NCBI GenBank assembly: GCA_040773245.1
Contig: JAXGWO010000004.1
Span: forward strand, 4,290-68,289
Origin: PVC group bacterium
GTDB lineage: Bacteria; Auribacterota; Erginobacteria; Erginobacterales; Erginobacteraceae
Length of the DNA: 64,000 bases
Direction of reading: 5' to 3'
Each line of letters opens with the position of its first letter. Positions within the stretch are counted from its first letter, which is position 1. Made by a program: the position numbers and the translations under genes. Below the pieces are notes generated by a model. It did no database searches. It saw only the letters and a program-made list of their open reading frames with translations, and was not told the DNA's origin. Shown one piece after another: positions 5,176-47,745 of the stretch.

Positions 5176-6027
5176 ATGGGCGATGAGCGATCCATTCTGG
5201 TGATCGGCCACCGCGGCCTCCTCGGGAGGGCGTGTCTGGATGTCCTCTCCGGTCGGTTTTCGATCTCCGGGGTCGATCTCGACCGTTGCGATATAACCCG
5301 GCCGGACCGGATCGCGGAGTCCCTGGACGGTTTCCGTCCCCGGTGGGTGATCAACACCGCCGCCGTCACCGACGTCGACGGCTCCGAGGCCGACCCCGAA
5401 CGGGCCTGGGAGGTCAACGCCCGCGGCCCCGGGAACCTGGCCGCGGCCTGCCGCGAGCGGGGGAGCCGGCTTCTCCAGGTCAGCACCGATTTCGTCTTCG
5501 ACGGCCGGAAGGACGAACCTTACCGGGAAGACGATCCCCCGCGCCCGCTCAGCGTTTACGGGGCGAGCAAGCGGGGGGGAGAGGAGGCGGTGGCGGCGGC
5601 CGGGGGAGATTATCTGATCGTCCGGACGTCCTGGCTCTTCGGGCCCGGGGGAAAGAATTTCCCGGACACGATCCTGCGGGCGGCCGGGAGGAACCCCCGG
5701 CTGGAGGTGGTCGCCGACCAGCGGGGGGCGCCCACCTACTCGCGCGACCTGGCCGCGGGGCTGGGAGACCTGATCGAGAAGGACGCCTCCGGGATCGTCC
5801 ACCTCACCAACCGGGGGGACTGCTCCTGGTACGAGTACGCCGTCTTCATCCTCCGGACCGCCGGGATCGATGCCGAGGTCGTCCCGATCTCCAGCGGGAA
5901 ACTGGCCCGCCCGGCTCCCCGTCCCCGCTACTCGGTGCTCTCCCTGGAACGATACCGGGCGATCACCGGGAAGTCCCCCCGCCCCTGGGAGGAAGCCGTG
6001 CGGGAATATTTGGGGAGTGGGGAGTAG
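5176..6027 (+). CDS. rmlD: dTDP-4-dehydrorhamnose reductase.
   Basis: 283 aa. N-terminal ILVIGHRGLLGRA and family-wide similarity (VSTDFVFDG, YGASK). Confidence 0.85.
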   Translation: MGDERSILVIGHRGLLGRACLDVLSGRFSISGVDLDRCDITRPDRIAESLDGFRPRWVINTAAVTDVDGSEADPERAWEVNARGPGNLAAACRERGSRLLQVSTDFVFDGRKDEPYREDDPPRPLSVYGASKRGGEEAVAAAGGDYLIVRTSWLFGPGGKNFPDTILRAAGRNPRLEVVADQRGAPTYSRDLAAGLGDLIEKDASGIVHLTNRGDCSWYEYAVFILRTAGIDAEVVPISSGKLARPAPRPRYSVLSLERYRAITGKSPRPWEEAVREYLGSGE

Positions 6028-6100
6028 GCAGTGGGGAGTGGTCCCGTAACCGATCACCGATTACTGCTTACTGCGCACTGCTTACCGCTCACTGCTCACC
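6012..6100. repeat. Heptamer-family palindromic repeat array: GGGAGT/GGCAGT followed by ACTGCTT/ACTGCGC/ACCGCTC.
   Basis: GGGGAGTGGGGAGTAGGCAGTGGGGAGTGG ... TTACTGCTTACTGCGCACTGCTTACCGCTCACTGCTCACC, overlapping the rmlD stop. Confidence 0.7.
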
Positions 6101-6190
6101 AGCCGTCCCAAAGGATTTTCTTCTCGCCCTGGCCGCCGGCGGGTGTATAATTTCTTGAGAATCATACCCAATCCGGAAAGGAGGGAGACG

Positions 6191-6400
6191 ATGATCGATA
6201 AGGAACTGCTGGAGATACTGGCCTGCCCGGCCTGCAAGTCCGGGCTGCGCTATGACGAGACAAACCAGAAGCTGATCTGTCTCGACGAGAACCGGGAGAC
6301 CCGCGAGTTCAAGCGGGGCGAGCGCTGCGGACTGATCTACTCGATCAAGGACGACATCCCGGTGATGCTGATCGAGGAGGCGGAGAAGCCGGCTGACTGA
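6191..6400 (+). CDS. Trm112/YcaR-like small zinc-finger protein.
   Basis: LLEILACPACKSGL...DIPVML signature. The track ORF 6143-6400 likely starts at the ATG at 6191. Confidence 0.7.
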   Translation: MIDKELLEILACPACKSGLRYDETNQKLICLDENRETREFKRGERCGLIYSIKDDIPVMLIEEAEKPAD

Positions 6401-6448
6401 CAATCTTTTCCGTCCTGGGTAATCTAATACAAGCCGAAGAATGAAATA

Positions 6449-6537
6449 ATCGCTATCGCTATCGGGATCGCTATCGGGATCGAAGATCCGCCCTGCGCCG
6501 GTCGATAGCGATACCGCTAGCGATCCCGATACCGATT
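6449..6537. repeat. Hexamer-family palindromic repeat array.
   Basis: ATCGCTATCGCTATCGGGATCGCTATCGGGATCG ... CGATAGCGATACCGCTAGCGATCCCGATACCGAT, inverted halves around a GC-rich loop. Confidence 0.75.
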
Positions 6538-6569
6538 ATGTCCGGAGCAATTAAGGGGGGGAGGGCGAG

Positions 6570-7025
6570 ATGAAGACCGCGCCAGTTCGAATATTGGTCA
6601 TCCACGGGCCCAACCTGCAGCTGCTGGGCCGGCGGGAGGTGGAGATCTACGGCGCCTTTACCCTGGAGGACATCAACCGCCGGCTGGAGGAGGAAGCCGT
6701 CCGCCTGGGGGTCGAGCTGACGGTGGTCCAGTCCAACCACGAGGGGGAGATCGTCGACCTGATCGGCACGGCGGAAGGCCGGGTTGATGCGATCGTGATC
6801 AACCCGGCCGCCTACACCCATACCAGCGTCGCCATCCGCGACGCCCTGGCCGCGGTCCCGGTCCCGGCGGTGGAGGTCCATCTCTCCAACATCCACCGCC
6901 GGGAGGACTTCCGCCAGCGTTCCCTGGTGGCCCCGGCGGCGGCGGGGCAGATCGCCGGTTTCGGGCCGGAGAGCTACCGGCTGGGGCTGGCCGCCGCGGT
7001 CGGCCTGGTCCGCCGGGAGGGGTAG
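6570..7025 (+). CDS. aroQ: Type II 3-dehydroquinate dehydratase.
   Basis: [16 protein letters not shown]...HLSNIHRRE motifs, 151 aa. Confidence 0.9.
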
Positions 7026-7026
7026 G

Positions 7027-8118
7027 ATGGATTTCGACCACCCCGGGCGGCTGCAGAAGCTCCGCGGCCGGATGGCGGCCTCTTCCCTCGACTCGCTCCT
7101 GGTCTCCGGAAGAGAGAATGTCTATTACTTCTCCGGCTTCACCGGCGGCGAAAGCCTGCTCCTGGTCAAGGAAGAACGGGCCTTCCTGATCACCGACTTC
7201 CGTTACCGGGAACAGGCTCAGGAGGAGCTGGCCCCGGGCTGCGAGCTCCGGTTGCGTTCCGCCTCCGCGGCCGCCGCGGTATCGTCCGTGGCCCGGGAAG
7301 CAAGACTCCGGCGGATCGGGTTCGAGGAGGAACAGCTCAGCTGGGCCGCTCACGGGCGGCTGGAGGCCAAGCTTCCCGGGAAAAGACTCATCCCGGCCGG
7401 GAACCTGATCAGCGGATTGCGGATGGTCAAGGAGCCGGGGGAGATTGACCGGATTCGCGAATCGGCCCGGCGGACCGTCCGGGTCCTCTCCCGGTTTCAG
7501 GGGACGATCAAGCCGGGGAGGACCGAAAAATCCCTCGCCCGCCGGCTGGCGGCGGATTTTTACCGGGCCGGCGGGGAACCGGCTTTCGATCCGATCGTGG
7601 CCGCCTCCGCCCACAGCTCCCACCCTCACGCCGTTCCCTCGGACCGGCGGCTGCGGAGAGGGGAGATCTGCCTGGTCGACCTGGGGGGGAGGTGGGGGCT
7701 CTACAACTGCGACCTGACCAGGACCCTGGCCGGGGGGACCTGCCCCCGCCGGTTCCGGACGGTTTACCGGGCGGTCCTGGCGGCCCAGGAGAAAGCGATC
7801 GGGGCGGTCCGCCCCGGGGTCCGGGCCTCCGAGATCGACCGCCGGGCCCGCGGCTGCCTGAAAGAGAGAGGCCTGGAAGGGTACTTCGGGCACGGTCTCG
7901 GACACGGGGTCGGCCTGGAAGTCCACGAGCGGCCGGCCGTCAACCGCCGCTCCCGGGAGGTCCTGCGGGAGGGGATGGTCTTCACCATCGAGCCGGGGGT
8001 CTATATCCCCGGCTGGGGCGGAGTCCGGATCGAGGACACCGTCCTGGTCACCGCCTCCGGCTGCGAGGTCCTCACCCCGGCCCCGAAAACCCTGGAAAGC
8101 TGCCGGTTGGAGTGGTAG
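7027..8118 (+). CDS. M24-family Xaa-Pro aminopeptidase.
   Basis: Creatinase N-domain plus HGLGHGVGLEVHE metal-binding motif. Confidence 0.85.
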   Translation: MDFDHPGRLQKLRGRMAASSLDSLLVSGRENVYYFSGFTGGESLLLVKEERAFLITDFRYREQAQEELAPGCELRLRSASAAAAVSSVAREARLRRIGFEEEQLSWAAHGRLEAKLPGKRLIPAGNLISGLRMVKEPGEIDRIRESARRTVRVLSRFQGTIKPGRTEKSLARRLAADFYRAGGEPAFDPIVAASAHSSHPHAVPSDRRLRRGEICLVDLGGRWGLYNCDLTRTLAGGTCPRRFRTVYRAVLAAQEKAIGAVRPGVRASEIDRRARGCLKERGLEGYFGHGLGHGVGLEVHERPAVNRRSREVLREGMVFTIEPGVYIPGWGGVRIEDTVLVTASGCEVLTPAPKTLESCRLEW

Positions 8119-8123
8119 AAAGG

Positions 8124-8186
8124 ACAGTGGGCAGTAGGCAGTAGGCAGTGGGCAGTGAATTCTGAATTCTGTATTCTGTATTCTGA
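8124..8186. repeat. Heptamer-family repeat array: GGGCAGT/AGGCAGT x4 then AATTCTG/TATTCTG x4.
   Basis: GTGGGCAGTAGGCAGTAGGCAGTGGGCAGTGAATTCTGAATTCTGTATTCTGTATTCTG between the aminopeptidase and pfk. Confidence 0.75.
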
Positions 8187-8201
8187 CAAGGAGGTCTGAC
8201 A

Positions 8202-9557
8202 ATGGTCAAAAGAATCATCGTCGGGGAGTCGGGAGGGCCGACCCCGGTCATCGACTGGGAAGTCGCCGGGGTGGTGGACGCCGCCCAGAAAGCCGGGGTC
8301 GAGGTTTACGGGATGTTCAACGGCCTGGAGGGGCTGCTCAACGCCAACATCGAGGGGAATATCGTCGATCTCTCGATGATCAACGCGATGTCCTTTACCT
8401 TCACCGGTCCCGGGGCGGGCCTGCGGACCACCCGGATCAAGCCCAAGGCCGAGCAGTACCGGTATATGGCCCGCCACCTGGACGCCCTCGGCATCGACGG
8501 GGTGGTCTACATCGGCGGCAACGACAGCGCCGACCAGCTGCTCGGGTTGACCGCCGAGTGCGAGGTCAAGGCCATCCACGCCATCAAGACGGTGGACAAC
8601 GACCTCCCGGTCACCCACCACTGCCCCGGGTACGGTTCGGCCGCCCTCTACAACGCGATCGCCCTCAAGAACGTCCACAGCGACTTCTCCTCCTACCGGG
8701 TCTGGGGCAATTACCGGGTTGACGGGAAGATCGTCGCCGCCCCCAGCATCATCCCGGTGGTCATCTACCAGGTGATGGGGCGCAAGGCCGGGTGGTTGGC
8801 CCAGGGGACCGCCTTCGCCAAGGTCGACCCCCGGGGCGATCTCCGTCCGGATTATCCGCCGCACATCATCCTCAGCAAAGAGATCCTCTTCGACCCGGAG
8901 GAGTTCCTGGCCGAACTGGAGAGGGTCATCACCAAAAGGAACGAGGCGGTGATCGTGGTCCAGGAGGACCTGACCGACAAGAAGACCGGGAAGGCCCTGG
9001 CCGAGGTTTATTCCGACACGGTGATCACCGATCCCCACGGCAACATCCAGCACGGCCGGGCGGGATCGTTCGCCCCCTGCCTCTTCCTGGCCGGGCTGAT
9101 CAAGAAGGAGCTGAAGATCCCCGGCCTGCTGGGGCAGATCAAGGAGGCCGTCCTCGTCCCCCAGCACATCCAGCGGTCCAACCGGGTCTCCCGGCAGGAC
9201 GCCTGCGAGGCCTATATGGTCGGCTATGCCGCCGTCCGGGCGATGCTCGACGGCGCCGACCGGAAGTCGGTAATCCTGGAGAAGGTCAAGACCCGGGTCA
9301 CCACCGGCCTGACCGACCTGGCCAACATCGCCGCTCGGGAGAGAAAAGTTCCCCTCGAGTACATCGACGGCTACCGGGGCCCGACCCAGGAGTTCATCGA
9401 CGAGTTCATCTACACCATCGGCGGCGCGGGGGCGATCCCCCATTACTCCTACCGGAAGTTCATCAACGTTCCCGTCCCCGAGGCGATCAAGAAAGCGCCG
9501 TACCTTAAGGGAGAGGACGAGTACAAGTGGCCCCTGAAGAGGGACATCATCCAGTAA
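8202..9557 (+). CDS. pfk: 6-phosphofructokinase family protein, likely pyrophosphate-dependent.
   Basis: GGNDS, KTVDNDLP and MGRKAGWLA PFK motifs, 451 aa. Confidence 0.75.
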   Translation: MVKRIIVGESGGPTPVIDWEVAGVVDAAQKAGVEVYGMFNGLEGLLNANIEGNIVDLSMINAMSFTFTGPGAGLRTTRIKPKAEQYRYMARHLDALGIDGVVYIGGNDSADQLLGLTAECEVKAIHAIKTVDNDLPVTHHCPGYGSAALYNAIALKNVHSDFSSYRVWGNYRVDGKIVAAPSIIPVVIYQVMGRKAGWLAQGTAFAKVDPRGDLRPDYPPHIILSKEILFDPEEFLAELERVITKRNEAVIVVQEDLTDKKTGKALAEVYSDTVITDPHGNIQHGRAGSFAPCLFLAGLIKKELKIPGLLGQIKEAVLVPQHIQRSNRVSRQDACEAYMVGYAAVRAMLDGADRKSVILEKVKTRVTTGLTDLANIAARERKVPLEYIDGYRGPTQEFIDEFIYTIGGAGAIPHYSYRKFINVPVPEAIKKAPYLKGEDEYKWPLKRDIIQ

Positions 9558-9575
9558 TTCGGACGGGATCCGACG

Positions 9576-10142
9576 ATGGAAAATAACATTATCGCGGCGC
9601 TGGAAGAGAACCTCCGGCAGGGAGAGAAGCTAAAATCTTTGGCCCCGGCCATCGCCCGGGCGGCCGGGATGATGATCGGCTGTCTCCGTTCCGGGGGGAA
9701 GATCCTGATCTGCGGCAACGGCGGTTCCGCCGCTGATTCCCAGCACATCGCCGCCGAACTGGTCGGAAGGTTCAAGCGGGAACGGAAGGGGCTGGCGGCG
9801 GTCGCCCTGACCACCGACACCTCGATCCTGACCGCCCTGGCCAACGATTACTCCTTCGACGGGGTCTTCCGCCGCCAGGTCGAGGCCCTCGGCCGCCCGG
9901 GCGACCTGCTGCTGCTGCTTTCCACCAGCGGCAACTCCCCCAATCTCTTGCTGGCCGCCCGGGAGGCGAAAGCGGCCGGTTTGGGGACCTGCGCCCTGCT
10001 CGGGAAAGACGGGGGCAAGCTGGCCGGGGAGGTTGACCTCGCCCTGGTCGTCCCATCCTCCGACACCGCCCGGATCCAGGAAGGCCAGGCCCTGATCTAC
10101 CACATCCTCTGCGACCTGGTGGAGGGGGCCTTCGCCGGGTGA
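9576..10142 (+). CDS. gmhA: D-sedoheptulose-7-phosphate isomerase.
   Basis: SIS domain, [17 protein letters not shown] motif, 188 aa. Confidence 0.85.
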
Positions 10143-10633
10143 AGAAGAAGATCACAACCGCGCGGGAACTGCTTCCGATCCTGGAAAAGCGCCGCCGCTC
10201 GGGGAAGAAGATCGTCTTCACCAACGGCTGCTTCGATATCCTCCACGCCGGCCACGTCCGCTACCTCCGGAAGGCCCGGTCGGCGGGGGACCTGCTGGTG
10301 GTCGGCCTGAACAGCGACCGCTCGGTCCGGGGCCTGAAAGGGGAGGGCCGCCCCCTGGTCAGCCAGGAAGAGCGGGCGGAACTGCTGGCCGCCCTGGAGA
10401 TGGTTGACTACGTGGTTATCTTCGACGAGCCCACCCCCCGGGAGCTGATCAAGACCCTCCGTCCCCGGGTCCTGGTCAAGGGCGGTGACTGGAAACGGGA
10501 GGAGATCGCCGGCGCCGAGGAGGTGGAGGCCGACGGGGGCCGGGTCCTGATCGTCCCCCTGGTCCCCGGCCGTTCCACCAGCGGGCTGATCGGAAAGATC
10601 GTCGAGGGAGCCCGCTCCCGGGTGGAGATATGA
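10139..10633 (+). CDS. rfaE2: D-glycero-beta-D-manno-heptose-1-phosphate adenylyltransferase (RfaE/HldE domain II).
   Basis: Cytidylyltransferase-like [18 protein letters not shown] motif. Overlaps gmhA's stop by 4 bp. Confidence 0.85.
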
Positions 10634-11913
10634 CCGCGGTCACCGAGGCGCGCCGAGGCCAACCCATCCCGGGGGTTGAGCTGGCGGCACAGCGGGAGGG
10701 GGTCCGGGCGGAGAAGATCCTGGAGGGTCTGGCCGAGGGGACGATCGTGGTCCCGGCCAATCGGGGTCGGACGGTGAAGAAGCCCTGCGCGATCGGGAAG
10801 GGACTCCGGGTCAAGGTCAACGCCAACCTCGGCACTTCCTCCCAGGCGGTGGACTTCGACCTGGAGCTGGAGAAGGTCCGGGCCGCCGTGGCGGCCGGTG
10901 CCGACACGGTGATGGACCTCTCCACGGGGGGGGATATCAGCGCCCTGAGGGAACTGGTGCTGGAAGCCTCCCCCGTCCCGGTGGGGACCGTCCCCATCTA
11001 CGAGGCGGCGATCCGGGCCGGGGCCGAGAAGGGTTCCATCGCCAGGATGACCGGCGACGAGATGCTGGCCGCCATCGAGCACCAGGCCCGGCAGGGGGTC
11101 GACTATATGACCGTGCACGCCGGGGTCAACCTCCGGACCCTGGAGGCGCTCCGCCGCTCGCCCCGCCTGCTCGGCCCGGTCAGCCGGGGGGGGGCGTTTC
11201 TTTTGGTCTGGATGGCGGTCAACGGGAGCGAGAACCCGCTCTACGAACGCTTCGACGAGGTTCTGGAGATCACCCGGGAGCACGATGTTACCCTCAGCCT
11301 TGGCGACGGCCTGAGGCCGGGCTGCCTGGCCGACTCCACCGACCGCCCCCAGATCCAGGAACTGATCGTCCTCGGAGAGTTGGCCGAGCGCTGCCGGCAG
11401 GCCGGGGTCCAGGTGATGATCGAGGGCCCGGGGCATATCCCGCTGAACCAGATCGCCGAGAACGTCCGGCTGGAAAAATCCCTCTGCCGGGGGGCTCCTT
11501 TCTACGTCCTCGGTCCGCTGGTCACCGACATCGCCCCCGGTTACGACCATATCACCTGCGCCATCGGCGGAGCCCTGGCCGCCTGGCACGGGGCCGACTT
11601 TCTCTGTTACGTCACCCCGGCCGAGCACCTTGGTCTCCCCTCGCCGGAGGATGTCCGCGAGGGGGTGACGGCGACCCGGATCGCCGCTCACGCCGCCGAC
11701 GTCGCCCGCGGACTTCCCTCTGCCCGGGACCGGGACGACCGGATGTCGCGCTGCCGGAAGGCCCGGGACTGGAAGGGCCAGGTCGCCGCCGCCCTTGACC
11801 CCGAAAAGGCGCTCCGCTACCTGGGTGACCTGGAAGGGAAGGAGGATTACTGCACGATGTGCAGCGAGTACTGCGCGATCAAGATTTTGGAACAGAACTT
11901 TCCGGAGAAATAA
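10630..11913 (+). CDS. thiC: Phosphomethylpyrimidine synthase.
   Basis: 427 aa with a C-terminal CTMCSEYC iron-sulfur motif and a conserved ThiC core. Overlaps rfaE2's stop by 4 bp. Confidence 0.9.
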
Positions 11914-11936
11914 TTCTTATCCGTTCCGGGGTTAAT

Positions 11937-12014
11937 TGCTATCGCTATCGGGATCGCTATCGGGATCGGCGGTTAGGCAGTACTTGGATCCCGATAGCGA
12001 TCCCGATAGCGATT
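11937..12014. repeat. Hexamer-family perfect inverted repeat with a heptamer-type motif in the loop.
   Basis: GCTATCGCTATCGGGATCGCTATCGGGATC ... GATCCCGATAGCGATCCCGATAGCGAT, with the loop containing TAGGCAGTA. Confidence 0.8.
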
Positions 12015-12031
12015 TAAATAAGGAGAATGAG

Positions 12032-12931
12032 ATGCCAGTCTTAGTCGTCGGCTCGGTCGCTTTCGATACCGTCACCACCCCCTTCGGCAAGCGGGAGAAG
12101 ATCCTCGGGGGGTCGGCCACCTACTTCTCTTATTCCTGCAGTTTCTTCGCCCCGGTCTGCCTGGTGGCGGTGGTCGGCGAGGATTTCCCGGTTGATTACC
12201 GGCGGTTGCTGGAAGGAAAGGGGGTCAACCTGGAAGGACTCCAGATCGTCCCGGGCAAGACCTTCCACTGGGGAGGCTCCTACCGCTACGATATGAACGA
12301 GGCCGAGACCGAGTTCACCGACCTCAATGTCTTTGAGAATTTCCATCCCCGCCTCCCCCGGTGCTGCCGGGACTGCGAGTACGTGCTCCTGGCCAACATC
12401 GACCCCGATCTCCAGCTCGAGGTTCTGGGGCAGGTGAAGAGACCCCGGCTGGTGGTCGGGGACACGATGAATCTCTGGATCAAACTGAAGCAAGACCGGC
12501 TGCGGGAGGTATTCGGCCGGCTGGATATCCTGATCCTCAACGACGCCGAGGCCCGGCAGTTCACCGGCCGGGTTGCCTTGAAGAGCGCCGCCGCGCAGCT
12601 CCTCGAGCTCGGGCCCCGGGCGGTAGTGATCAAGAAGGGGGAACACGGGGCCCTGCTCTTTTGCCGCGACGGAATGTTCTTCGCCCCTGGATTGCCCCTG
12701 GAGAAGGTGGTCGATCCCACCGGGGCGGGGGACAGTTTCGCCGGCGGTTTTATGGGTTGCCTGGCGAAAACCGGGGAGACGGATTTTCCCGCCTTGAAGA
12801 AAGCGATGATTTACGGTAGCGTGATGGCGTCCTTCAACGTCGAGGATTTCAGCCTGGAACGCTTGAAAAGAGTCAGCCCCGGTGATATAAAGGAACGCTA
12901 TCGCCAGTTTCAAGCACTGGTGGATTTCTGA
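12032..12931 (+). CDS. PfkB/ribokinase-family carbohydrate kinase.
   Basis: DPTGAGDSFAGGF PfkB signature near the C-terminus. The track ORF starts inside the repeat array at 11936; the true start is likely the ATG at 12032 (MPVLVVG). Confidence 0.75.
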   Translation: MPVLVVGSVAFDTVTTPFGKREKILGGSATYFSYSCSFFAPVCLVAVVGEDFPVDYRRLLEGKGVNLEGLQIVPGKTFHWGGSYRYDMNEAETEFTDLNVFENFHPRLPRCCRDCEYVLLANIDPDLQLEVLGQVKRPRLVVGDTMNLWIKLKQDRLREVFGRLDILILNDAEARQFTGRVALKSAAAQLLELGPRAVVIKKGEHGALLFCRDGMFFAPGLPLEKVVDPTGAGDSFAGGFMGCLAKTGETDFPALKKAMIYGSVMASFNVEDFSLERLKRVSPGDIKERYRQFQALVDF

Positions 12932-12938
12932 CTGTCGC

Positions 12939-13010
12939 GCGGGTGTAGCTCAATGGCAGAGCTCCAGCTTCCCAAGCTGGCTACGAGGGTTCGATTCCCT
13001 TCACCCGCTT
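12939..13010 (+). tRNA. tRNA-Gly (anticodon CCC).
   Basis: Cloverleaf folded by hand. Acceptor GCGGGTG/CACCCGC, D-stem GCTC/GAGC, anticodon stem CCAGC/GCTGG with loop TTCCCAA, T-arm GGTTCGATTCC. Confidence 0.8.
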
Positions 13011-13084
13011 ATAAATTCGCTCGTTCCGCTCGCGTCTTGATGGGGCGCGGGCTTCGTCCGTGTTTTGGACTCGGCGAAACCTGA

Positions 13085-13114
13085 ATCGCTGTCGGTATCG
13101 GGATCGGTATCGAA
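13085..13114. repeat. Hexamer-family repeat fragment.
   Basis: CGCTGTCGGTATCGGGATCGGTATCGAAG downstream of tRNA-Gly. Confidence 0.55.
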
Positions 13115-14394: not shown

Positions 14395-15354
14395 GTGAAG
14401 GCCACCCTGAATCTCCCGTCACCGGAAATGGTCCGGGACCTCTTCGCCCGGGAAGAGAAGAATCTCCGCCTCCTCGAGGAATCCTTCCGGGTCCAGATGG
14501 CGGCCCGGGACAACTTTGTCCGGATCTCCGGCCCCGAGGCCGCCGTGCGGGAGACCGAGAAGCTGCTGCGCGACCTCGCCCGGATCCTGGAGACCGGCGA
14601 GGCGATCACCGACTCGGAGTTCCGGCGGCTGGTCCGGATCTACTCGGGCGGCGGCGGGGCGTCGATCGACGATCTCTACGGGGACAAGATCGAGGTGGAC
14701 TCCCGCCAGGGTTTTGTCCGCCCCCGGACGGTCAACCAGAAGAAGTATGTCGAGGCGATCCGCCGCCACGACCTGACCTTTGCCATCGGCCCGGCCGGGA
14801 CCGGGAAGACCTACCTGGCGATGGCCCTGGCGGTCTCGGCCCTCCTCCAGGGACAGGTCAAGCGGCTGATCCTGACCCGCCCCGCCCTGGAGGCCGGCGA
14901 GAAACTGGGTTTTCTGCCCGGGGACCTCTATCAGAAGATCACCCCTTACCTTCGCCCCCTTTACGACGCCCTCTACGATATGATGGACGGGGAGAGGATC
15001 CGCAAATACGAGGAGGAGGGGGTGATCGAGGTGGCGCCGCTGGCCTTTATGCGGGGCCGGACCCTCAACCACGCCTTCATTATCCTTGACGAGGCCCAGA
15101 ACACCACCCCGGAACAGATGAAGATGTTCCTGACCCGGCTGGGCTTCAATTCCCGGGCGGTGATCACCGGCGACGTCACCCAGGTCGATCTGCCACCCCG
15201 CCAGGTCTCGGGCCTGAAATCGGCCCGTTCGGTATTGAAGGGGATCCCCGAGATTCCCTTCATCCACCTGACCCGGGAAGACGTGATCCGCCACCCCCTG
15301 GTCCAGAAGATCGTCCGGGCCTATGAACGGGAGGAGAAGACGGACGGTCTATGA
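14395..15354 (+). CDS. phoH: PhoH-family ATPase.
   Basis: Walker A GPAGTGKTYLAMA, PhoH core, GTG start. Confidence 0.9.
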   Translation: MKATLNLPSPEMVRDLFAREEKNLRLLEESFRVQMAARDNFVRISGPEAAVRETEKLLRDLARILETGEAITDSEFRRLVRIYSGGGGASIDDLYGDKIEVDSRQGFVRPRTVNQKKYVEAIRRHDLTFAIGPAGTGKTYLAMALAVSALLQGQVKRLILTRPALEAGEKLGFLPGDLYQKITPYLRPLYDALYDMMDGERIRKYEEEGVIEVAPLAFMRGRTLNHAFIILDEAQNTTPEQMKMFLTRLGFNSRAVITGDVTQVDLPPRQVSGLKSARSVLKGIPEIPFIHLTREDVIRHPLVQKIVRAYEREEKTDGL

Positions 15355-17594
15355 TCGGGGCGGCGTCCAGCAAACGATTATTTTCCGGGAAGAAGAGCCG
15401 GAAGAAGAGGAGGAAACGGGGAAGGATCCCGGGGATCCTGGAAGAGGGGTCGTTCGGGCGCTGGTCCCTGGGGGTTGCCGTCTTCGCGGCCAGCGTCCTG
15501 GTCATATCCTGGCGGGGGGTGCCGATCCGGATCCCCACCGTGGGGAGGATATCCGAGCGGGACGTTATCGCCACCTGTGACTTCGCTTTTCCCGACCGGG
15601 CCCGGACCGAGGGGGAGAGAGAGGCGGCGGTCAACCGCCAGCCGGTCGCCTACCGGGTGGACGGTTCCATCCCCGCGGAGAAGATCGCCCGGCTGGAAGA
15701 TCTGCTCCGCCGGTTCTCCCCTCCCGGGCCGCCTCCCCGGGCCGCGGTCCCCGGGGTTGTTTTTTCCCATCCCTCCCGGGTTCTCGCCCGTCTCGGCTCC
15801 GCTTGCTCGCCGCCCGACCTGGCCGAGCAAGCGGTGGTGATCCTGGCCGAAGCCTACCACAAGGGGATCTTGGCCTCGGACGTCAAGAACACCCTGCTCA
15901 ACACCCGCCAGGAGAATATTCTGGTCGGCGACCGGTCGGCGGGAACCGAGGTCCGGTCCCGGATCGCCGATCATCCCGACGAGGGAGCCGCCCGCCGGCG
16001 GGCGGCCGCCGCCCTCCAGGATGTCTTCCCGGCGTCCGGGCCTTTTGCCGGGGAGATAGTCTCCCTGCTGATTGGGCCGAACCTGGTCTTCGATCCGGAG
16101 AAGACCGCCGAACTGCGCGACGCCGCCCGGCGCTCGGTTCCGACGGTGATGACCGATGTCTTCCGGGGCGATAAGATCATCCGGCAGGGAGAGGAGGTGC
16201 GCCCCCTCCACATCCAGAAACTCCGGGCTTACCTGGATGAATTCTACCGGATCCAGCCGCCGATCTCCTTCCTCCGATACACCCTGGGGATCGCCCTCCT
16301 GCTCATCCTGCTCTATCTGGTGACGGCCAGCTTTCTCCACCGGTATCACCGGGCGGTTCTGCGGAGCAATTCCCGTCTGCTGCTGATCTCCACCATAGTT
16401 ATCCTGGTCCTGGTCTTCTCCCGGGGGCTCCGCCAGGCGGCCTGGGTCCTTCCCCCCGGCCTGATGGAAGCCGTCCGCTTCCTCTCGCCGGCGGCCTTCG
16501 GGGCCATTCTGCTCGCCCTGCTGATCGGGGTGCGGCTGGCCCTGTTCTTCACGGTCATCCTCTCCTTCCAGGCCGCCCTGATCCAGGGGGGCGGCGAGGC
16601 TTATCTCCTGGTGGGGATAATCGGGGGGATGACCGCGGTTCTGGGCCTCCGGTTCGCCCGCCGCCGCCGGGATCTGTTCCGGGCCGGAGCGCTCTCGGCC
16701 GGGGCCGGGATCCTGGCCATCGCCGCCCTCGGCCTGGCCGAACAGGCGCCGCCGGGCCTGATCGCCGCCCAGACCCTGGGGGCGGGCGGGGCCGGCATCC
16801 TCTCCGCGCTGGTCGCCCTGGTCGCCCTGGGTCTCTTCGAACCGCTCTTCCGGATCTCCTCCAACATCGGCCTGCTGGAACTCTCCGATCTCAATCACCC
16901 CCTGCTCCGGACCCTGATGGTCCTGGCCCCGGGGACCTACCACCACTCCCTGATGGTGGCCAACCTGGCCGAAGGGGCGGCCGAAGCCGCCGGGGGCAAC
17001 CCCCTCCTGGCCCGGGTCAGTTCCTACTTCCACGACATCGGCAAGACGGTGAAGCCGGAGTACTTCTCGGAGAACGAGGCCCCCGGGGCCAGCCGGCACG
17101 ACGATCTCAGCCCCAGCCTGTCCAGCCTGATCCTGATCGCCCACGTCAAGGAAGGGGCGGCCCTGGCCCGCCGGCACAAGCTCGACCGCCGGATCGTGGC
17201 GATCATCGAGCAGCATCACGGGACCGGGCTGATCTCCTATTTTTACGACCGGGCCGAGCGCGCTCTCCAGCTGAACTTCAAGCTGCTGGAAAAGGAATTC
17301 CGTTACCCCGGGCCCAAGCCCCGCGACCGGGAAGCGGCGATCGTGATGCTGGCCGACGCCGCGGAGGCGGCCTCGGTCGCCCTCGAGCGCCGGACCCCGG
17401 CCCGCCTGAGGGCCCTGGTCAGGGAGATCATCCAGCAGCGCTTCACCGACGGCCAGCTCGACGAGTGCGATTTGACGATGACCCACCTGAAGAAGATCGA
17501 GGAGGCCTTCGTCCGGATCCTCTCCGCCCGCTACCACACCCGGGTCAAGTACCCCGAGGCGAACGGGAAGAAAAGCAAGTCCCGCCAGCGATAA
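15351..17594 (+). CDS. 7TM receptor with intracellular HD hydrolase domain (YqfF-like, 7TMR-HD).
   Basis: Extracellular N-domain, 7 TM helices and an HD domain with the FHDIGK motif. Conserved position between phoH and ybeY. Confidence 0.85.
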   Translation: MIGAASSKRLFSGKKSRKKRRKRGRIPGILEEGSFGRWSLGVAVFAASVLVISWRGVPIRIPTVGRISERDVIATCDFAFPDRARTEGEREAAVNRQPVAYRVDGSIPAEKIARLEDLLRRFSPPGPPPRAAVPGVVFSHPSRVLARLGSACSPPDLAEQAVVILAEAYHKGILASDVKNTLLNTRQENILVGDRSAGTEVRSRIADHPDEGAARRRAAAALQDVFPASGPFAGEIVSLLIGPNLVFDPEKTAELRDAARRSVPTVMTDVFRGDKIIRQGEEVRPLHIQKLRAYLDEFYRIQPPISFLRYTLGIALLLILLYLVTASFLHRYHRAVLRSNSRLLLISTIVILVLVFSRGLRQAAWVLPPGLMEAVRFLSPAAFGAILLALLIGVRLALFFTVILSFQAALIQGGGEAYLLVGIIGGMTAVLGLRFARRRRDLFRAGALSAGAGILAIAALGLAEQAPPGLIAAQTLGAGGAGILSALVALVALGLFEPLFRISSNIGLLELSDLNHPLLRTLMVLAPGTYHHSLMVANLAEGAAEAAGGNPLLARVSSYFHDIGKTVKPEYFSENEAPGASRHDDLSPSLSSLILIAHVKEGAALARRHKLDRRIVAIIEQHHGTGLISYFYDRAERALQLNFKLLEKEFRYPGPKPRDREAAIVMLADAAEAASVALERRTPARLRALVREIIQQRFTDGQLDECDLTMTHLKKIEEAFVRILSARYHTRVKYPEANGKKSKSRQR

Positions 17595-25578: not shown

Positions 25579-25660
25579 TCATCCACCCCAACCCGTACTC
25601 GCCCTTGTACTTGAGTCCCAGCGGGGGCTTTCGAGTACGAGTTGGAAGCACGATCATCGT

Positions 25661-30338: not shown

Positions 30339-31433
30339 CTACGGATGATTGGTCGAGTCAGGGTCTACAGAGCTGCAATTAATCCAATTATTTGTACAGC
30401 CGGTTGCATATGAACTTGAGACATACCAACACTCGTTGAAACCGCTTGCGGTAGTAGAGTTCCCATCTACTCGGCAGCTGCTCAGAAAGTCACACTGATA
30501 GAATCCATTTGTCGTACAGTTATAGGCATAACAGGAGGAAGTGTTGCTGCAAACCTGTAAGCCCGAGGTGGTGCAGCCACTCGCATAGCAGGAAGAGAGG
30601 TTGTGGCATCTGAGAAAGCCGTAGGAGCATCCGTCGGCCGAGCAGCCGACCAGGCGGGAGGTGAGGTTGGAATCCACGCCCCGAAAACCGGCGTTGGCGG
30701 CGGTCCGGACCACGCAGTTGACGAAGCTCACGAACTCGGCGTCGGCGGTGTAGTGGAATCCGGAGTAGAGGCTGTTCACCGAGCGGCAGTTCTGGAGTGT
30801 CGCGTACGAGTTGGTCAGGTAAACCGTCCCGATACTCGAAGCGGTGCTCCCGCCGCCGTCGAAACGCAGGTTCTCCAGGTGGCAGTTCGGCCCCGTGACC
30901 GCGAAGTAGTAACCGTCCGCCGAGAACTGGATGATCGAGGAGTTGCTCTCCCCGACCACGTGCTTGATGTTGATGGGGACAGTGATCACCTGGCTCACGG
31001 GGTAGGTCCCGGCGGGGATGAAGACGCTGTTGTAGGTGGTGTTCTGCAGCGCTGCCACCAGGTCGGCGCCGTCGTCGGCCTTCACCACGTAGTCGTAAAG
31101 CCGCTGGCCCCCGCCGCCGCCGGTCAGGGCGGTGTCTCCCGAACTCCCGAAGTAGATCCGACTCACCCCGCGGATCGTCCAGAGGCCGGTCGTCGGCCGG
31201 AAGACCCCGATCTCGGCGACACCGTCGCCGGTGTAGTCCCCGGCGGCGGGGGTGTCCCCGAAGGTGCCGAAGTAGACCCGGGTCAAACCCCGGACCACCC
31301 AGAGCCCGGTCGAGGGCCGGAAGACGGCGATGTCGTCCCGGGAGTCGCCGTCGAAGTCGGCGGCGGGCACCGGGCCGGTCCCGGCCAGCAGGACCAGGGC
31401 CAGTACGGCGATGATGGCGGTTATCGTCCTCAT
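30339..31433 (-). CDS. Secreted protein with duplicated FG-GAP-like N-terminal repeats and a Cys-rich parallel beta-helix-like C-terminal region.
   Basis: Signal peptide; two copies of VFRPxTGLWxxRGxxRxYFGxxGD; C-terminal repeats such as CYASGCTTSGLQVC and CYAYNCTTNGFYQC. Markedly lower GC than neighbours. Confidence 0.7.
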   Translation of the reverse strand: MRTITAIIAVLALVLLAGTGPVPAADFDGDSRDDIAVFRPSTGLWVVRGLTRVYFGTFGDTPAAGDYTGDGVAEIGVFRPTTGLWTIRGVSRIYFGSSGDTALTGGGGGQRLYDYVVKADDGADLVAALQNTTYNSVFIPAGTYPVSQVITVPINIKHVVGESNSSIIQFSADGYYFAVTGPNCHLENLRFDGGGSTASSIGTVYLTNSYATLQNCRSVNSLYSGFHYTADAEFVSFVNCVVRTAANAGFRGVDSNLTSRLVGCSADGCSYGFLRCHNLSSCYASGCTTSGLQVCSNTSSCYAYNCTTNGFYQCDFLSSCRVDGNSTTASGFNECWYVSSSYATGCTNNWINCSSVDPDSTNHP

Positions 31434-32872: not shown

Positions 32873-32915
32873 CCGGGGTATCCTGTCGCCGGTTGCCGCT
32901 CAAGGGGAGTTCGAT

Positions 32916-32990
32916 TGCGATAGCGATACCGATAGCGATCCCGACCGGTTGCCTCTGTCCTACTCCCCACTCCCCACTGCCCACTCCCTA
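32916..32990. repeat. Adjacent hexamer-family and heptamer-family arrays (composite locus).
   Basis: GCGATAGCGATACCGATAGCGATCCCGACC followed by CTGTCCTACTCCCCACTCCCCACTGCCCACTCCC, between the SPT-like and GNAT genes. Confidence 0.7.
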
Positions 32991-39422: not shown

Positions 39423-39495
39423 GGGCGATTAGCTCAGCGGGAGAGCACCTGGATCACAACCAGGGGGTCACTGGTTCAATCCCAGTATCGCCCAT
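39423..39495 (+). tRNA. tRNA-Val (anticodon CAC).
   Basis: GGGCGATTAGCTCAGCGGGAGAGC D-arm, anticodon stem CCTGG/CCAGG with loop ATCACAA, T-arm GGTTCAATCC, acceptor GGGCGAT/ATCGCCC. Confidence 0.8.
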
Positions 39496-40283: not shown

Positions 40284-40688
40284 AACGGGGAGAGGTAGAT
40301 GGTCGCCTCCCGCCGCCGCCTTAAGGCGAAGGCGGGGGGAGGAAAGTCCGAACTCCGCAGGGCAGGGCGCCCCGAGAAGATCGGGGGCCCCGGGGGGGAG
40401 ACCCCCCGGGGACGGAAAGTGCCGCAGAAAACAGACCGCCGATGGTCCCGATCCCCGGATCGGGGCACAGGCAAGGGTGAAAAGGTGCGGTAAGAGCGCA
40501 CCGCCCGGCGCGTGAGCGCCGGGGCAGGGCAAACCCCGCCCGGAGCAAGGCCAAATAGGGGCCGAGGTGCTGCCCGCACCGTTCGAGGCCCGGGTAGGCC
40601 GCACTGAGCCCGAGGGCAACCGAGGGCCGAGATAGATGACCATCGCCCCTTAAAGGGGGACAGAATTCGGCTTATTCCTCTCCCCGTC
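40284..40688 (+). ncRNA. rnpB: RNase P RNA, bacterial type A.
   Basis: Universally conserved rnpB blocks are all present: GGAAAGTCCGAACTCC...CAGGGCAGG, GGAAAGTGCCGCAGAAAACAGACCGCC, GGTAAGAGCGCACC, GGGCAAACCCCGCCCGGAGCAAGGCCAAATAGGGG, AGATAGATGA and the P4 3' strand ACAGAATTCGGCTTA. P1 pairs ACGGGGAGAGG with CCTCTCCCCGT. Confidence 0.85.
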
Positions 40689-40709
40689 CTGCCGATCTTT
40701 TCCCTGCCG

Positions 40710-44755: not shown

Positions 44756-46248
44756 AACTGGCCCGGCTGATCAAGGATCTGGAGCCGGTCGAAACCCGGG
44801 GCAATCTCGGGGTCGAGGTGACCGGTCTCGCCGCCGACTCCCGGCGGGTCTCTCCGGGCGATCTCTTCGTCGCCGTCCCCGGCGCCCGCCGCAACGGGCT
44901 GGAGTTCCTCTTTGAGGCCCGCGACCGGGGCGCGGTGGGGGTGGTGGCGGCCGAGTTCCCTTCCGCCGCCAACGGCAACCTGGTTCAGGTGAAGGTGGAG
45001 GACCCCCGCCGGGCCCTGGGCCTGCTGGCCAACCGGTTCTTCGACTACCCGGCCGCCGGCCTGAAACTGATCGGGGTGACCGGGACCAACGGCAAGACCA
45101 CCGTCTCCATCCTCGCCCGGGCGGTGCTGGAGGAGGCCGGGATACCGACCGGTCTGCTGGGCACCATCTACTACGGGATCGGCCAGCGGCAGATCCCCTC
45201 CAGCCTGACCACGCCGGAACCTCCCCGCCTCCAGGAACTCCTGGCGGAGATGAAGCGGGCGGAGGTCACCCACGCCATTCTCGAGGTCTCCTCCCACGCC
45301 GTCGCCCAGGAACGGCTGGCCGGGATCGAGTTCTCCACCGGTGTCTTCACCAACCTCTCCCGGGAACACCTGGATTTCCACCGGACGATCGACGAGTACC
45401 GGGCCGCCAAGCTCCGGTTCTTCTCCTCCCTCCACCGGGGTTCCCCGGCCCCGGAGGAGAAGACGGTGATCGTCAACATCGACGATCCCCTGTCGGAGAA
45501 GATTCTCCACCGTCTCCCGGTCCCGGCGGTCACCTACGGCTTCTCCCCCCGGGCCGACCTCGCCGCCTCCCGGCTGGCCCCGACCCGGACCGGCACCCGG
45601 TTCACGGTCCGCTGGCGGGACGGACTCATCCCGGTCCGGATAAATCTGCCCGGCCGGCACAACGTCCTCAACGCCCTGGCGGTCTTCGCCCTGGGGCGGA
45701 GCGAGGGGGTCGCCCCGGAGGCGATCGCGCGGACCCTGGAGAATCACCCGGGGATACCCGGCCGCCTGGAACGGGTCGAGACCGGGCGGGGCTTCGATCT
45801 CTTCGTCGATTACGCCCACACCCCGGACGGCCTGGAGAACGTTCTCCCGGCTCTCCGCCGCCTGTACAGGAAGCGGTTGATCCTGGTCTTCGGCTGCGGA
45901 GGGGACCGCGACCCCGGGAAGCGTCCCCTGATGGGGAAGGCGGCCGCCCGCTGGGCGGACCGAGTCATCATCACCTCGGACAACCCGCGCTCGGAAAACC
46001 CCGGCGGGATCATCGCGCAGATCAAGGCCGGGATCCCCCGGGGGTCGCGGGGGGTGAAGGCGATCGAGGACCGGAGGGAGGCGATCGCCGAGGCCTGCCG
46101 GACGGCCCGGCCCGGCGACGCCGTCCTGATCGCCGGGAAGGGGCACGAGCGGGAGCAGATCTTCGCCGACCGGGTCATCCCCTTCGACGACCGGGAGGCC
46201 GTTCGGAAGATCCTGGCCGAACTGCCGAAGAAATATGCCGGGAAGTGA
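44752..46248 (+). CDS. murE: UDP-N-acetylmuramoyl-L-alanyl-D-glutamate--2,6-diaminopimelate ligase.
   Basis: Mur ligase domains, GVTGTNGKTT P-loop. The GTG start overlaps ftsI's stop; track ORF 44215-46248 has a spurious 5' extension. Confidence 0.9.
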   Translation: MKLARLIKDLEPVETRGNLGVEVTGLAADSRRVSPGDLFVAVPGARRNGLEFLFEARDRGAVGVVAAEFPSAANGNLVQVKVEDPRRALGLLANRFFDYPAAGLKLIGVTGTNGKTTVSILARAVLEEAGIPTGLLGTIYYGIGQRQIPSSLTTPEPPRLQELLAEMKRAEVTHAILEVSSHAVAQERLAGIEFSTGVFTNLSREHLDFHRTIDEYRAAKLRFFSSLHRGSPAPEEKTVIVNIDDPLSEKILHRLPVPAVTYGFSPRADLAASRLAPTRTGTRFTVRWRDGLIPVRINLPGRHNVLNALAVFALGRSEGVAPEAIARTLENHPGIPGRLERVETGRGFDLFVDYAHTPDGLENVLPALRRLYRKRLILVFGCGGDRDPGKRPLMGKAAARWADRVIITSDNPRSENPGGIIAQIKAGIPRGSRGVKAIEDRREAIAEACRTARPGDAVLIAGKGHEREQIFADRVIPFDDREAVRKILAELPKKYAGK

Positions 46249-46254
46249 ACGATT

Positions 46255-47706
46255 ATGGAATCGCAGCGGATCAGGACCATCGCCGGCTGGACGAAGGGCA
46301 ATCTGGAGCGGGGCGACCCGGAAGGGACGGCGTCCGGGGTCGCCATCGACAGCCGGACCATCCGTCCCGGGGAGATCTTCCTCGCCCTGGCGGGAGGGAG
46401 GTATGACGGTCACGACTACGCCGCCGCCGCCCTCGATTCCGGGGCGGCCGGGGTGATCCTCTCCCGACCGGCGGCGGAGATCGAGCGGCGGGAGGGAGAG
46501 TTCGCCCTGATCCGGGTCGGGGCCGGACTCCCGGCGCTGGCCGGTCTGGCCCGGGGTTACCGGAGACTGTTCAGCCCGGCGGCCATCGCCGTCACCGGGA
46601 GCAACGGGAAGACCACGACCAAGAACCTGATCGGGCTCTTCCTGGGGGAGGATAGGGCGACCCTGACCGCCCCCGCCAGCTACAACAACCTGATCGGCGT
46701 CTCCCTGACCATCCTCCGGCTCTCCGGGACGGACCGGGCGGCGGTCTTCGAGCTGGGCACCAACCATCCCGGGGAGATCGGGGAACTGGCCCGCCTCTGC
46801 CGTCCCTCGCGGGCGGTGATCACCAATATCGGCCCCGCCCACCTCGGCCGTTTCGGCAGCCTGGAGGCGGTCGCCGCCGAGAAGGGGCAGGTGCTGGAGG
46901 CCCTGGAAGGAGAGAAGACAACCTTCCTCAACACCGACGATCCGCGGGCGGCGGCCCTGGCCGGCCGGGCCCCCGGGGAGGTGATCGGTTTCGGTCTGGA
47001 GCCGCCGGCCCGGGTCCGCGCCCTGGATATCCGCCGCCGCCCCGGCGGGGTCAGTTTCCGGGCCACCCTCCGGGGAGGCGAACTTCCGATCGAGGCCCCG
47101 CTGCCCGGGCGGCACAATATCCTCAACCTGCTGGCCGCCCTGGCGGTTGGGGATCACTTCGGGGTCGATCCCGAGGCGATGCGCCAGGCGGCGCTGAAGG
47201 CCGCCCTTCCCCCCGGACGGATGGAGAGAATCAGGCTGGGTGGGGCGGAGGTCATCAACGACGCCTACAACGCCAACCCGGTCTCGATGACGGCGGCCCT
47301 GGCGGCCTGGCTGGAGATGGACTGCCCGGGAAGAAGGATCCTGGTCAGCGGGGATATGAACGAACTGGGCGATTTCTCCGAAGCCGCCCATCGGGAATGG
47401 GGAGAGCGGTTGTCCGGATCGGGGCTCGACACCCTGATTTTTCTCGGTCCCCTCTCCCGGGCGGCGGCCGAAGCCGCCCGGGCCACCGGCGGGACCGTCC
47501 GGGTGGAGACCGTCGATGACTGCCGGGAAGCGGCGGAGATTTTAAATGCCATCGTCCGTCCCGGGGACAGCGTCCTGCTCAAGGGCTCGCGGAAGATGGG
47601 GCTGGAGGAGATCGTGGAGATACTGAGAAGTCAGAAGTCGGAGGTCAGAAGTCAGAATACAGAATACAGAATTCAGAAGGGGGAGCCGGGGGCCGGGTCA
47701 TTCTGA
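46255..47706 (+). CDS. murF: UDP-N-acetylmuramoyl-tripeptide--D-alanyl-D-alanine ligase.
   Basis: GSNGKTTTKNLI P-loop and Mur ligase domains. The C-terminal approximately 25 aa read into the heptamer repeat array. Confidence 0.9.
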   Translation: MESQRIRTIAGWTKGNLERGDPEGTASGVAIDSRTIRPGEIFLALAGGRYDGHDYAAAALDSGAAGVILSRPAAEIERREGEFALIRVGAGLPALAGLARGYRRLFSPAAIAVTGSNGKTTTKNLIGLFLGEDRATLTAPASYNNLIGVSLTILRLSGTDRAAVFELGTNHPGEIGELARLCRPSRAVITNIGPAHLGRFGSLEAVAAEKGQVLEALEGEKTTFLNTDDPRAAALAGRAPGEVIGFGLEPPARVRALDIRRRPGGVSFRATLRGGELPIEAPLPGRHNILNLLAALAVGDHFGVDPEAMRQAALKAALPPGRMERIRLGGAEVINDAYNANPVSMTAALAAWLEMDCPGRRILVSGDMNELGDFSEAAHREWGERLSGSGLDTLIFLGPLSRAAAEAARATGGTVRVETVDDCREAAEILNAIVRPGDSVLLKGSRKMGLEEIVEILRSQKSEVRSQNTEYRIQKGEPGAGSF

Positions 47707-47745
47707 CTTCTGAATTCTGTATTCTGAATTCTATATTTCAACAAG
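47621..47745. repeat. Heptamer-family palindromic array: CAGAAGT/CAGAATA x8, inverted as ACTTCTG/TATTCTG.
   Basis: AGAAGTCAGAAGTCGGAGGTCAGAAGTCAGAATACAGAATACAGAATTCAGAAG ... CATTCTGACTTCTGAATTCTGTATTCTGAATTCTA between murF and mraY. Confidence 0.8.

Follow-up and report, generated by a model that had tools for sequence, protein, structure and literature searches.

Tandem heptanucleotide units occupy five intergenic spacers in a 64,000-nt stretch of contig JAXGWO010000004.1 (positions 4,290 to 68,289, forward strand; hereafter the window, meaning the whole 64-kb stretch that was analysed), derived from an uncultured bacterium of the PVC group. These heptamer arrays are genuine, old features, and belong to a known class of intergenic heptanucleotide repeats that is here encountered in a further lineage and is ordinary in kind. 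With a probability of roughly 60 %, we interpret them as long simple-sequence repeats of the type represented by the cyanobacterial short tandemly repeated repetitive (STRR) sequences, which would have changed in place through slippage and fold-back growth and which probably exert a modest effect on the operon mRNA. The window has a G + C content of ~66 % and includes the dcw cell-division cluster. The closest named relatives of both its MurF (59 %) and GlmM (73 %) proteins are those of Candidatus Euphemobacter frigidus (Ca. Auribacterota, PVC group), and the host appears to represent a candidate Auribacterota-like lineage.

A preliminary description of the window had placed heptamer arrays in the areas of 6012, 8124, 28532, 32955 and 47621, and all five could be confirmed from the sequence, from counts of unit dimers and with Tandem Repeats Finder (TRF), which recovers the same arrays with between 3.9 and 7.7 units each. 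Two unit families can be distinguished, A-type (RGGSAGT) and B-type (CAGAAKW), each with a fixed core and free positions (NN + GCAGT and CAGAA + NN, respectively). Dimers of the A-type unit match thirteen times in the window, against 0.46 matches expected by chance (0/100 shuffles reach thirteen), and B-type dimers match twelve times against 0.07 expected, a count likewise reached by no shuffle. Single units showed no enrichment outside the arrays in the window, and on this basis dispersed seed motifs were rejected. None of the families in an Rfam scan of the window matched any array, the only matches being RNase P RNA and two tRNAs. The copy between murF and mraY had been credited with about sixteen units, where eight and five, thirteen in all, could be counted in its two arms. 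Its sequence is identical in two Logan assemblies from other runs, and arrays also occur at the same junctions in related genomes from separate studies, from which it can be concluded that the arrays are not assembly artefacts.

All five arrays are located in spacers between co-directional housekeeping genes, as the earlier placement between operon genes had it. The flanking pairs are rmlD-like/trm112-like, M24 peptidase/phosphofructokinase (PFK), glmM/uppP, aminotransferase/GNAT (minus strand) and murF/mraY. Using a gene map curated by hand, spacers amount to ~6.6 % of the window, and ~18 % of the spacer sequence is filled by short-unit arrays of all kinds. Each array extends from the upstream stop codon to just short of the next ribosome binding site (RBS). 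The G-rich strand of the A-type arrays is the sense strand in 4/4 cases, with onset 0–3 nt from the stop codon; this includes the minus-strand locus (32955–32989), where the orientation of the array reverses along with that of the genes. In three of these four arrays the stop codon is itself a TAG formed at a unit junction, where a final T meets the AGG of the following unit (6025–6027, 28544–28546 and 32990–32988). The pyrimidine-rich form, by comparison, finishes just ahead of the next RBS. At murF-mraY the MurF open reading frame (46255–47706) continues across left arm and loop and terminates at a TGA within the right arm (47704–47706), 5' of the mraY ATG at 47756, and the last twenty-odd residues of the protein (…RSQKSEVRSQNTEYRIQKGEPGAGSF) are thus array-coded, with orthologues having different array-coded tails or none.

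The arrays were further said to be palindromic, with each followed by its inverted complement. As judged from RNA folds, this applies to two of the five loci (6012–6100 and 47625–47733), with the other three being single arms or mixed arrays. At the first of the two-arm loci, the diverged right arm (6063–6100) pairs with the left arm (6012–6039) partly via G-U pairs, giving a predicted fold of -43.9 kcal/mol for the sense RNA (z -3.0) and -32.0 kcal/mol for the antisense RNA, and the murF-mraY locus folds with -50.9 kcal/mol (z -6.6). The mixed array between the M24 peptidase and PFK genes begins 3 nt past the stop codon of the former (8116–8118) with A-type units, which are directly adjoined by units that represent the inverse of B-type (8157–8186) and are not complementary to them. 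The latter units stop 1 nt ahead of the AAGGAGG RBS (8188–8194) of the PFK gene (ATG at 8202), and no hairpin is formed over the two (8122–8186; z 0.04). The single arm at glmM-uppP (28531–28572), which includes the glmM stop codon and of which the last base is 1 nt from the uppP ATG (28574), does not fold (z +2.75), nor does that at 32955–32989 (z -0.09), whose first unit is overlapped by the aminotransferase stop codon. Sense RNA was more stable than antisense RNA for 5/6 hairpins in the window and 10/15 hairpins in other phyla; neither proportion is significant, and the use of sense and antisense folding to distinguish RNA- from DNA-level structure was dropped.

Comparison with relatives shows that the arrays are vertically inherited, since the same unit types are found at the same junctions with differing unit numbers and sequences. 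At the murF-mraY junction, no array is present in L125, L126 and L211, while L208 has one arm of eight units without an inverted arm, L209 a palindrome without a loop and with GAATTC at its centre, L210 a short hairpin, and L123, as the window, a long hairpin. The C-terminal tails of MurF orthologues at 71–79 % identity, such as RSQETESRIQEPE or RIQNPESRSQK, are translated B-type heptamers, and two MurF orthologues are without a heptamer-coded tail. Between glmM and uppP, the window and L212 both have A-type units, which in L213 have drifted (AAGCGGT/GAGCAGT), and the aminotransferase junction contains four, five to six and nine A-type units in these three genomes. Arrays of hexamers are likewise common to the window and at least one relative at hpt-glmM and murD-lysM, with a different hexamer family (CTCGTA) at hpt-glmM in L213. 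In L212, (GTCCTTTNN)4 comes after the A-type arrays without being able to pair with them, in parallel to the mixed array at 8122–8186. The more distant L128 (MraY 73 %) incorporates (CACGAAGRA)3-loop-(TTCTTCGTG)3 at murF-mraY and (GGGGAGT)3 at 3 nt past the mraY stop codon. Array change is slow and stepwise, proceeding by whole units and by unit drift, with arms gained, lost or swapped. No variation was observed within the species: RmlD and MurF, with their array-coded tails, form single-member clusters on 9 and 11 contigs. Invariance and rarity of the arrays had been named beforehand as signs that would speak against their proposed significance; they are invariant on these contigs, but, with short-unit arrays of all kinds together making up ~18 % of the intergenic bases of the window, they cannot be called rare. 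A metagenome scan with MraY returned 80 loci, with only two close relatives among them.

Several families of bacterial repeats share features with these arrays. The units of the STRR families are CCCCAGT, TTGGTCA and CAACAGT, and the CAGT ending of STRR1 and STRR3 recurs here. STRR sequences are heptamer arrays of cyanobacteria (Mazel 1990, as cited in PMC4692102), and the arrays in the window are similar in that they consist of tandem heptanucleotides, in many dispersed copies between genes, with several unit families per genome. Dispersed non-coding tandem heptamers occur at five loci in 64 kb, all of them in spacers. They differ from STRR sequences in the unit sequences (RGGSAGT and CAGAAKW), in coexisting with hexamer and nonamer arrays that share their architecture, and in the host, a PVC-group candidate lineage with Ca. 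Euphemobacter frigidus as nearest named relative rather than a heterocystous cyanobacterium. The positional rule has its match in Xanthomonas and Nostoc, whose GGGAATC / GGGGA(C/T)T repeats form 70–75 inverted pairs per genome (Rehm et al. 2015, PMC4692102). In these repeats, 83 % of sites are common to two species with differing lengths, the G-rich strand is sense up to 50 nt past stop codons or antisense shortly upstream of start codons, and the neighbours are housekeeping genes, with under-representation between divergent genes (PMC4692102). The A-type arrays share the G-rich heptamers, the frequent convergent inverted pairs, the under-representation between divergent genes, the housekeeping neighbours and the occupation of the same junctions with length changes in related species, and 4/4 conform to the same positional rule on the sense strand at 0–3 nt from the stop codon. 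The units are nevertheless different, four G3 tracts are present in only half of the A-type arrays, and the B-type arrays are without G tracts. Intergenic direct repeats of the heptamer TAACTGA have furthermore been described in marine Beggiatoaceae, some Cyanobacteria and Bacteroidetes, with 7-nt step changes between close strains (MacGregor 2015, PMC4679880). Their reverse complement, TATCAGT, ends in CAGT as do the A-type units, and their ACTG-type strand is located directly upstream of start codons, as are the right arms here. In most TAACTGA arrays, however, there is only one arm, and it takes the place of the Shine-Dalgarno sequence, whereas in the window the RBS is kept and arrays placed after the stop codon are the main form.

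Tandem units of 5–11 nt that are longer than expected by chance, with heptamers the commonest, have been grouped as long simple-sequence repeats and are proposed to arise by polymerase slippage (Mrázek, Guo and Shah 2007, in the summary given by PMC4679880). Period 7 is dominant here too, and for units of 1–11 nt the TRF arrays of 3.9–7.7 units and the excess of dimers exceed chance expectation; this class is, however, descriptive and has no positional or hairpin architecture attached to it, unlike the arrays in the window. Repetitive extragenic palindromic (REP) elements of enterobacteria and pseudomonads are single conserved imperfect palindromes of ~20–40 nt. They have GTAG or CGTC as their head, are moved by REP-associated tyrosine transposases (RAYT), the genes of which usually have REPs on both sides, and have known roles in mRNA stability. 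The arrays resemble REPs and the bacterial interspersed mosaic elements (BIME) in their extragenic location inside operons and their hairpin potential, but are composed of tandem units with unique loops, with no RAYT nearby. Array copies share a 7-nt unit only, with arms of different length, different loops and no palindrome at 3/5 loci, while the unique loops, the lack of shared flanks and the orthologous sites in relatives are not those of miniature inverted-repeat transposable elements (MITE), which are defined by inverted repeats at their ends, a target-site duplication and conservation of the internal sequence. In the literature searched, the exact unit strings were found in vector and primer sequences only, with none in a bacterial context. 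The suggested novelty is not supported, since heptamer arrays that follow the same positional rule have been published (PMC4692102, PMC4679880, and Mazel 1990 as cited there).

On the slippage and fold-back reading, replication slippage would lengthen and shorten the arrays in place, and fold-back (snap-back) copying at a short palindrome, for example GAATTC, may supply an inverted arm, with growth halting at coding sequence or an RBS. The loop-less, GAATTC-centred form in L209 provides the best hint of such copying. The arrays would be transcribed within the operon mRNA, where the two-arm loci could form a long RNA stem that must be melted by the terminating ribosome, and the single arms may be unstructured or prone to forming G-quadruplexes (G4). 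The likeliest effect would be a modest change in upstream translation or in mRNA stability through protection of the 3' end, as for the many REPs that lie no more than 15 nt from a stop codon, which are described as stalling ribosomes and lowering upstream translation (Liang 2015, as reported in PMC12306157). Of the role in mRNA stability or termination suggested at the outset, the effect on mRNA is thus a plausible reading, but none of the arrays looks terminator-like, with no T-run in their tails as judged by eye and none flagged in the segments scanned (5000–13000 and 46000–51000).

Several considerations weigh against this interpretation. Slippage alone leaves unexplained the recurrence of a few unit families at many junctions of one genome, and both the transcription of the arrays and any effect on mRNA are presumed for this organism. 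The greater stability of sense over antisense RNA is only suggestive, and could stem from strand-biased mutation. In the murF-mraY sequences of relatives, compared by eye, the two variable positions of the B-type units show no covariation between the arms, an observation that speaks against a perfect stem being under strong selection. Positional conservation, too, is no proof of selection. The 4-fold sites of glmM and mraY are 71–79 % identical to those of two relatives, compared to 42–44 % by chance, and ordinary spacers align to relatives at 74–90 %. With such moderate divergence, arrays at the same junctions are to be expected from descent alone; positional conservation was rejected as proof of selection on these grounds, with synonymous sites differing by only ~25 % and ordinary spacers remaining alignable.

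Among the alternatives, the one that survives best, although it is still unlikely, is that the arrays are rows of sites for a single-strand RNA- or DNA-binding protein (cold-shock domain, S1 or similar), with one unit per domain; taken together, these would make operon junctions into a post-transcriptional regulon. It would account for the fixed cores and free positions in each family and for the repeated use of few families at many junctions. The side-by-side location of non-complementary arrays at 8122–8186 and in L212 (A-type and GTCCTTTNN) implies, moreover, that pairing is not what is kept. For the TAACTGA repeats, binding of cold-shock proteins (Csp), S1 or CsrA has been proposed, with CspB binding one heptamer per protein (PMC4679880). 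Against this, at least six unit families with periods of 6, 7 and 9 coexist in the clade and several readers would be needed, unit sequences drift among relatives, permuted control heptamers form arrays in other genomes too, and the reader protein remains putative. A broader and rather speculative variant, to which we assign a low probability, is that the unit families represent a cis-code, either read by single-strand nucleic-acid-binding proteins or written by a putative repeat-propagating activity, which might set relative cistron expression lineage-wide. It is retained on account of the non-complementary neighbours, the retention of cores in relatives and the failure of slippage alone to explain the sharing of families between loci.

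It is improbable that the A-type arrays are G4 elements like the GGGNATC repeats of Xanthomonas and Nostoc, acting on DNA or RNA. The G3-N4 spacing of GGGCAGT and GGGGAGT units, the canonical motifs that overlap 28531–28572 (motif 28518–28540) and 32955–32989, and the four to six units per array in keeping with the published positional rule (PMC4692102) are consistent with this. Four G3 tracts with loops of at most 7 nt are, however, found in only 2/4 A-type arrays and are absent at 6012–6039 and 8122–8156, the AGGCAGT unit, which is frequent in the window and predominates in many other genomes, has GG only, and most of the nineteen G4 motifs in this GC-rich window lie outside the arrays. Since G4 formation is impossible for the B-type and hexamer families, which are yet placed alike, and only half of the A-type arrays qualify, G4 formation was rejected as a unifying property.

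Spread by transposition, as non-autonomous mobile elements of the REP/RAYT or MITE kind, is very improbable. A dispersed family at extragenic sites would fit such an origin, the GTRG at each RGGCAGT junction bears a possible resemblance to the GTAG head of REPs, and in one relative a Y1_Tnp gene lies at a distance of 10 kb from the murF-mraY array. However, tblastn detected no Y1 transposase in the window, and the Y1_Tnp gene of the relative is flanked by its own unrelated inverted repeats with no heptamers beside it, on the basis of which the link to RAYT and REP was rejected. The unique loops and flanks of the arrays, their presence at orthologous junctions in relatives and the lack of variants on the 9 and 11 contigs of the species likewise speak against mobility, and the idea that they are the footprint of a mobile element is not sustained. 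Finally, it is scarcely credible that the arrays act as intrinsic terminators or as attenuators, or that they are contingency repeats which switch adjacent genes by phase variation, despite the strong stems at two loci and the classic suitability of tandem repeats for phase variation. Intrinsic terminators, in which a GC-rich stem-loop runs straight into a T-run, were rejected because no array was flagged in a terminator scan of 5000–13000 and 46000–51000 and the array tails, judged by eye, lack T-runs. Moreover, 3/5 arrays do not fold, the location is inside essential operons such as dcw, the neighbours are housekeeping rather than surface or virulence genes, and, within a limited sampling of 9 and 11 contigs and the identical DNA of two other runs, no unit-number variants occur.

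Similar arrays are not restricted to this lineage. A scan with (GGCAGTR)2GGCAGT, using one genome per species, identified at least 120 loci, in Planctomycetota, Acidobacteriota, Bacteroidota, Chloroflexota, Mesorhizobium and others. Among the loci listed, the anatomy is the same, comprising a stop codon, a G-rich arm, a loop (with an inner stem in some) and an ACTGCC arm, the last of which is common 3' of the G-rich arm and upstream of it just once. By rough gene calls, 53 of the 120 matches listed have the G-rich arm after a co-oriented stop codon (median distance ~6 nt), with offsets of -1, -8, -15 and -22 corresponding to a stop codon within the array, and 27 of the 120 have it upstream of an opposite-strand start codon. 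Period 7 dominates the short-period arrays counted in this analysis. In viral contigs the A-type pattern was found at 91 loci, against 5 and 53 for two permuted control heptamers, and many other unit types form arrays in the same loci; the presence of NGGCAGT across many phyla was therefore rejected as a sign of one specific mechanism. An AGT ending was seen in 35/89 bystander arrays, which is above a rough chance estimate of ~22 %, and a common AGT ending was rejected because many of the 35 are diverged arms of selected arrays.

The window thus adds a new host lineage for heptamer arrays, the candidate Auribacterota-like PVC bacterium, and with its relatives provides a comparative set in which a single junction is empty, or occupied by a single arm, a loop-less palindrome or a long hairpin. 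It further provides cases in which stop codons derive from the array itself and in which the C-terminus of the essential MurF protein is replaced by array-coded residues. Such cases are suited to testing growth by slippage and fold-back, and the effects of structure close to stop codons, and do not by themselves reveal a new mechanism. In practical terms, arrays of this kind interrupt assemblies made from short reads and, when metagenome-assembled genomes are annotated, lead to misplaced starts and stops.

Table 1. Repeat arrays, their component parts and structural RNA genes in the window.
Feature	Position	Strand	Description
Locus 1, A-type left arm	6012–6039	+	four units: GGGGAGT GGGGAGT AGGCAGT GGGGAGT
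Stop codon (TAG) of rmlD-like gene	6025–6027	+	made at a unit junction of the left arm
Locus 1, hairpin loop	6040–6062	+	23 nt, unique sequence
Locus 1, right arm (diverged)	6063–6100	+	ACTGCTT ACTGCGC ACTGCTT ACCGCTC ACTGCTC ACC; five ACTGCTY-type units
A-type array	8122–8156	+	five units: GGACAGT GGGCAGT AGGCAGT AGGCAGT GGGCAGT
Inverse B-type array	8157–8186	+	four GWATTCT units (GAATTCT x2, GTATTCT x2), then GA
A-type single arm	28531–28572	+	six RGGCAGT-type units; occupies the entire glmM-uppP spacer
A-type single arm	32955–32989	-	four to five units: AGGGAGT GGGCAGT GGGGAGT GGGGAGT AGGACAG
B-type left arm	47625–47680	+	eight units: GAGAAGT CAGAAGT CGGAGGT CAGAAGT CAGAATA CAGAATA CAGAATT CAGAAGG
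murF-mraY hairpin loop	47681–47698	+	small inner CCGG...CCGG stem
B-type right arm	47699–47733	+	five units: CATTCTG ACTTCTG AATTCTG TATTCTG AATTCTA
Possible third heptamer family	62703–62727	+	TAAAGTT CAAAGTT CGAAGTT (YRAAGTT); spacer before gene starting at 62803
Hexamer hairpins	5055–5160, 6449–6536, 11938–12013, 50255–50354
Hexamer single arms	13075–13112, 27133–27158
Hexamer array (ATCGCT/CGATAG family)	32912–32944	-	single arm; same spacer as heptamer array 32955–32989
Lone A-type unit (T-AGGCAGT-A)	11974–11982	+	in loop of hexamer hairpin 11938–12013
Nonamer family GTCCTTTNN	63826–63843		(GTCCTTTGG)x2; upstream of pgk-like gene
RNase P RNA	40286–40690		class A, 233 bits
Two tRNA genes	12939–13009, 39423–39494

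Besides the heptamers, a hexamer family (ATCGCT/ATCGGG paired with CGATAG/CGATCC) fills spacers in the same manner (Table 1), with the hairpin at 5055–5160 having an arm order opposite to that of the other hexamer hairpins. A heptamer array does adjoin a hexamer array (32955–32989 beside 32912–32944), as had been noted beforehand, and TAGGCAGTA is indeed located in the loop of a hexamer palindrome (11974–11982). The linkage proposed between the two families is thus upheld physically, and in their shared architecture and placement, but they have no sequence in common; nor is any sequence shared among the hairpin loops. Two independent short-read contigs (L001 and L002) terminate at 50326–50337, within the hexamer array at 50297–50354, which suggests that the hexamer unit is common enough genome-wide to break assemblies. 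A hairpin of another hexamer type (CTCGTA/GAGTAC) is present as a decayed stem in the window (25579–25660) and is clear at different junctions in L212 (8095–8160) and L213 (9865–9985).

The nonamer GTCCTTTNN occurs in L212 as four units after the A-type arrays at two junctions (~11357–11392 and 16672–16707), and the murF-mraY hairpin of L128 is one of two near-identical nonamer hairpins in that genome (2084–2177 and 3830–3926). Repeats of a further nonamer, ATAATCCGC, are located on either side of ftsQ (55852–55876 and 56744–56761), the latter 3 nt past the ftsQ stop codon and 15 nt before the ftsA start codon, where no clear Shine-Dalgarno sequence is visible. STRR insertions have been reported in cyanobacterial RNase P genes; TRF detected no tandem array within the RNase P gene of the window (40286–40690).

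Other repeated elements were also observed. In a 274-nt spacer (60560–60760), 8-mers of the GACAGGATAACAGG type are clustered, some direct and some inverted; they are unrelated in sequence to the arrays and may represent a set of protein-binding sites. The glyS-ppdK spacer (22635–22818) contains two copies, ~140 nt apart, of the small hairpin TTTTCGCC(T/-)TC(-/C)GGCGAAAA. In L123, a low-GC Y1_Tnp gene (150–1088) flanked by inverted repeats (ggggtcggacctacg…) is found upstream of the dcw cluster and is absent from the window, as is a dispersed GAATATCCAATATCCAA(C)AAGG element that occurs in L128 (~5150–5185), L212 (~5300–5320 and 9095–9190) and L213 (~14710–14800). Lastly, a 120-bp tandem duplication (31131–31366; two copies, 73 % match) is contained within the minus-strand gene at 30339–31433, the orthologues of which have faint FG-GAP matches.

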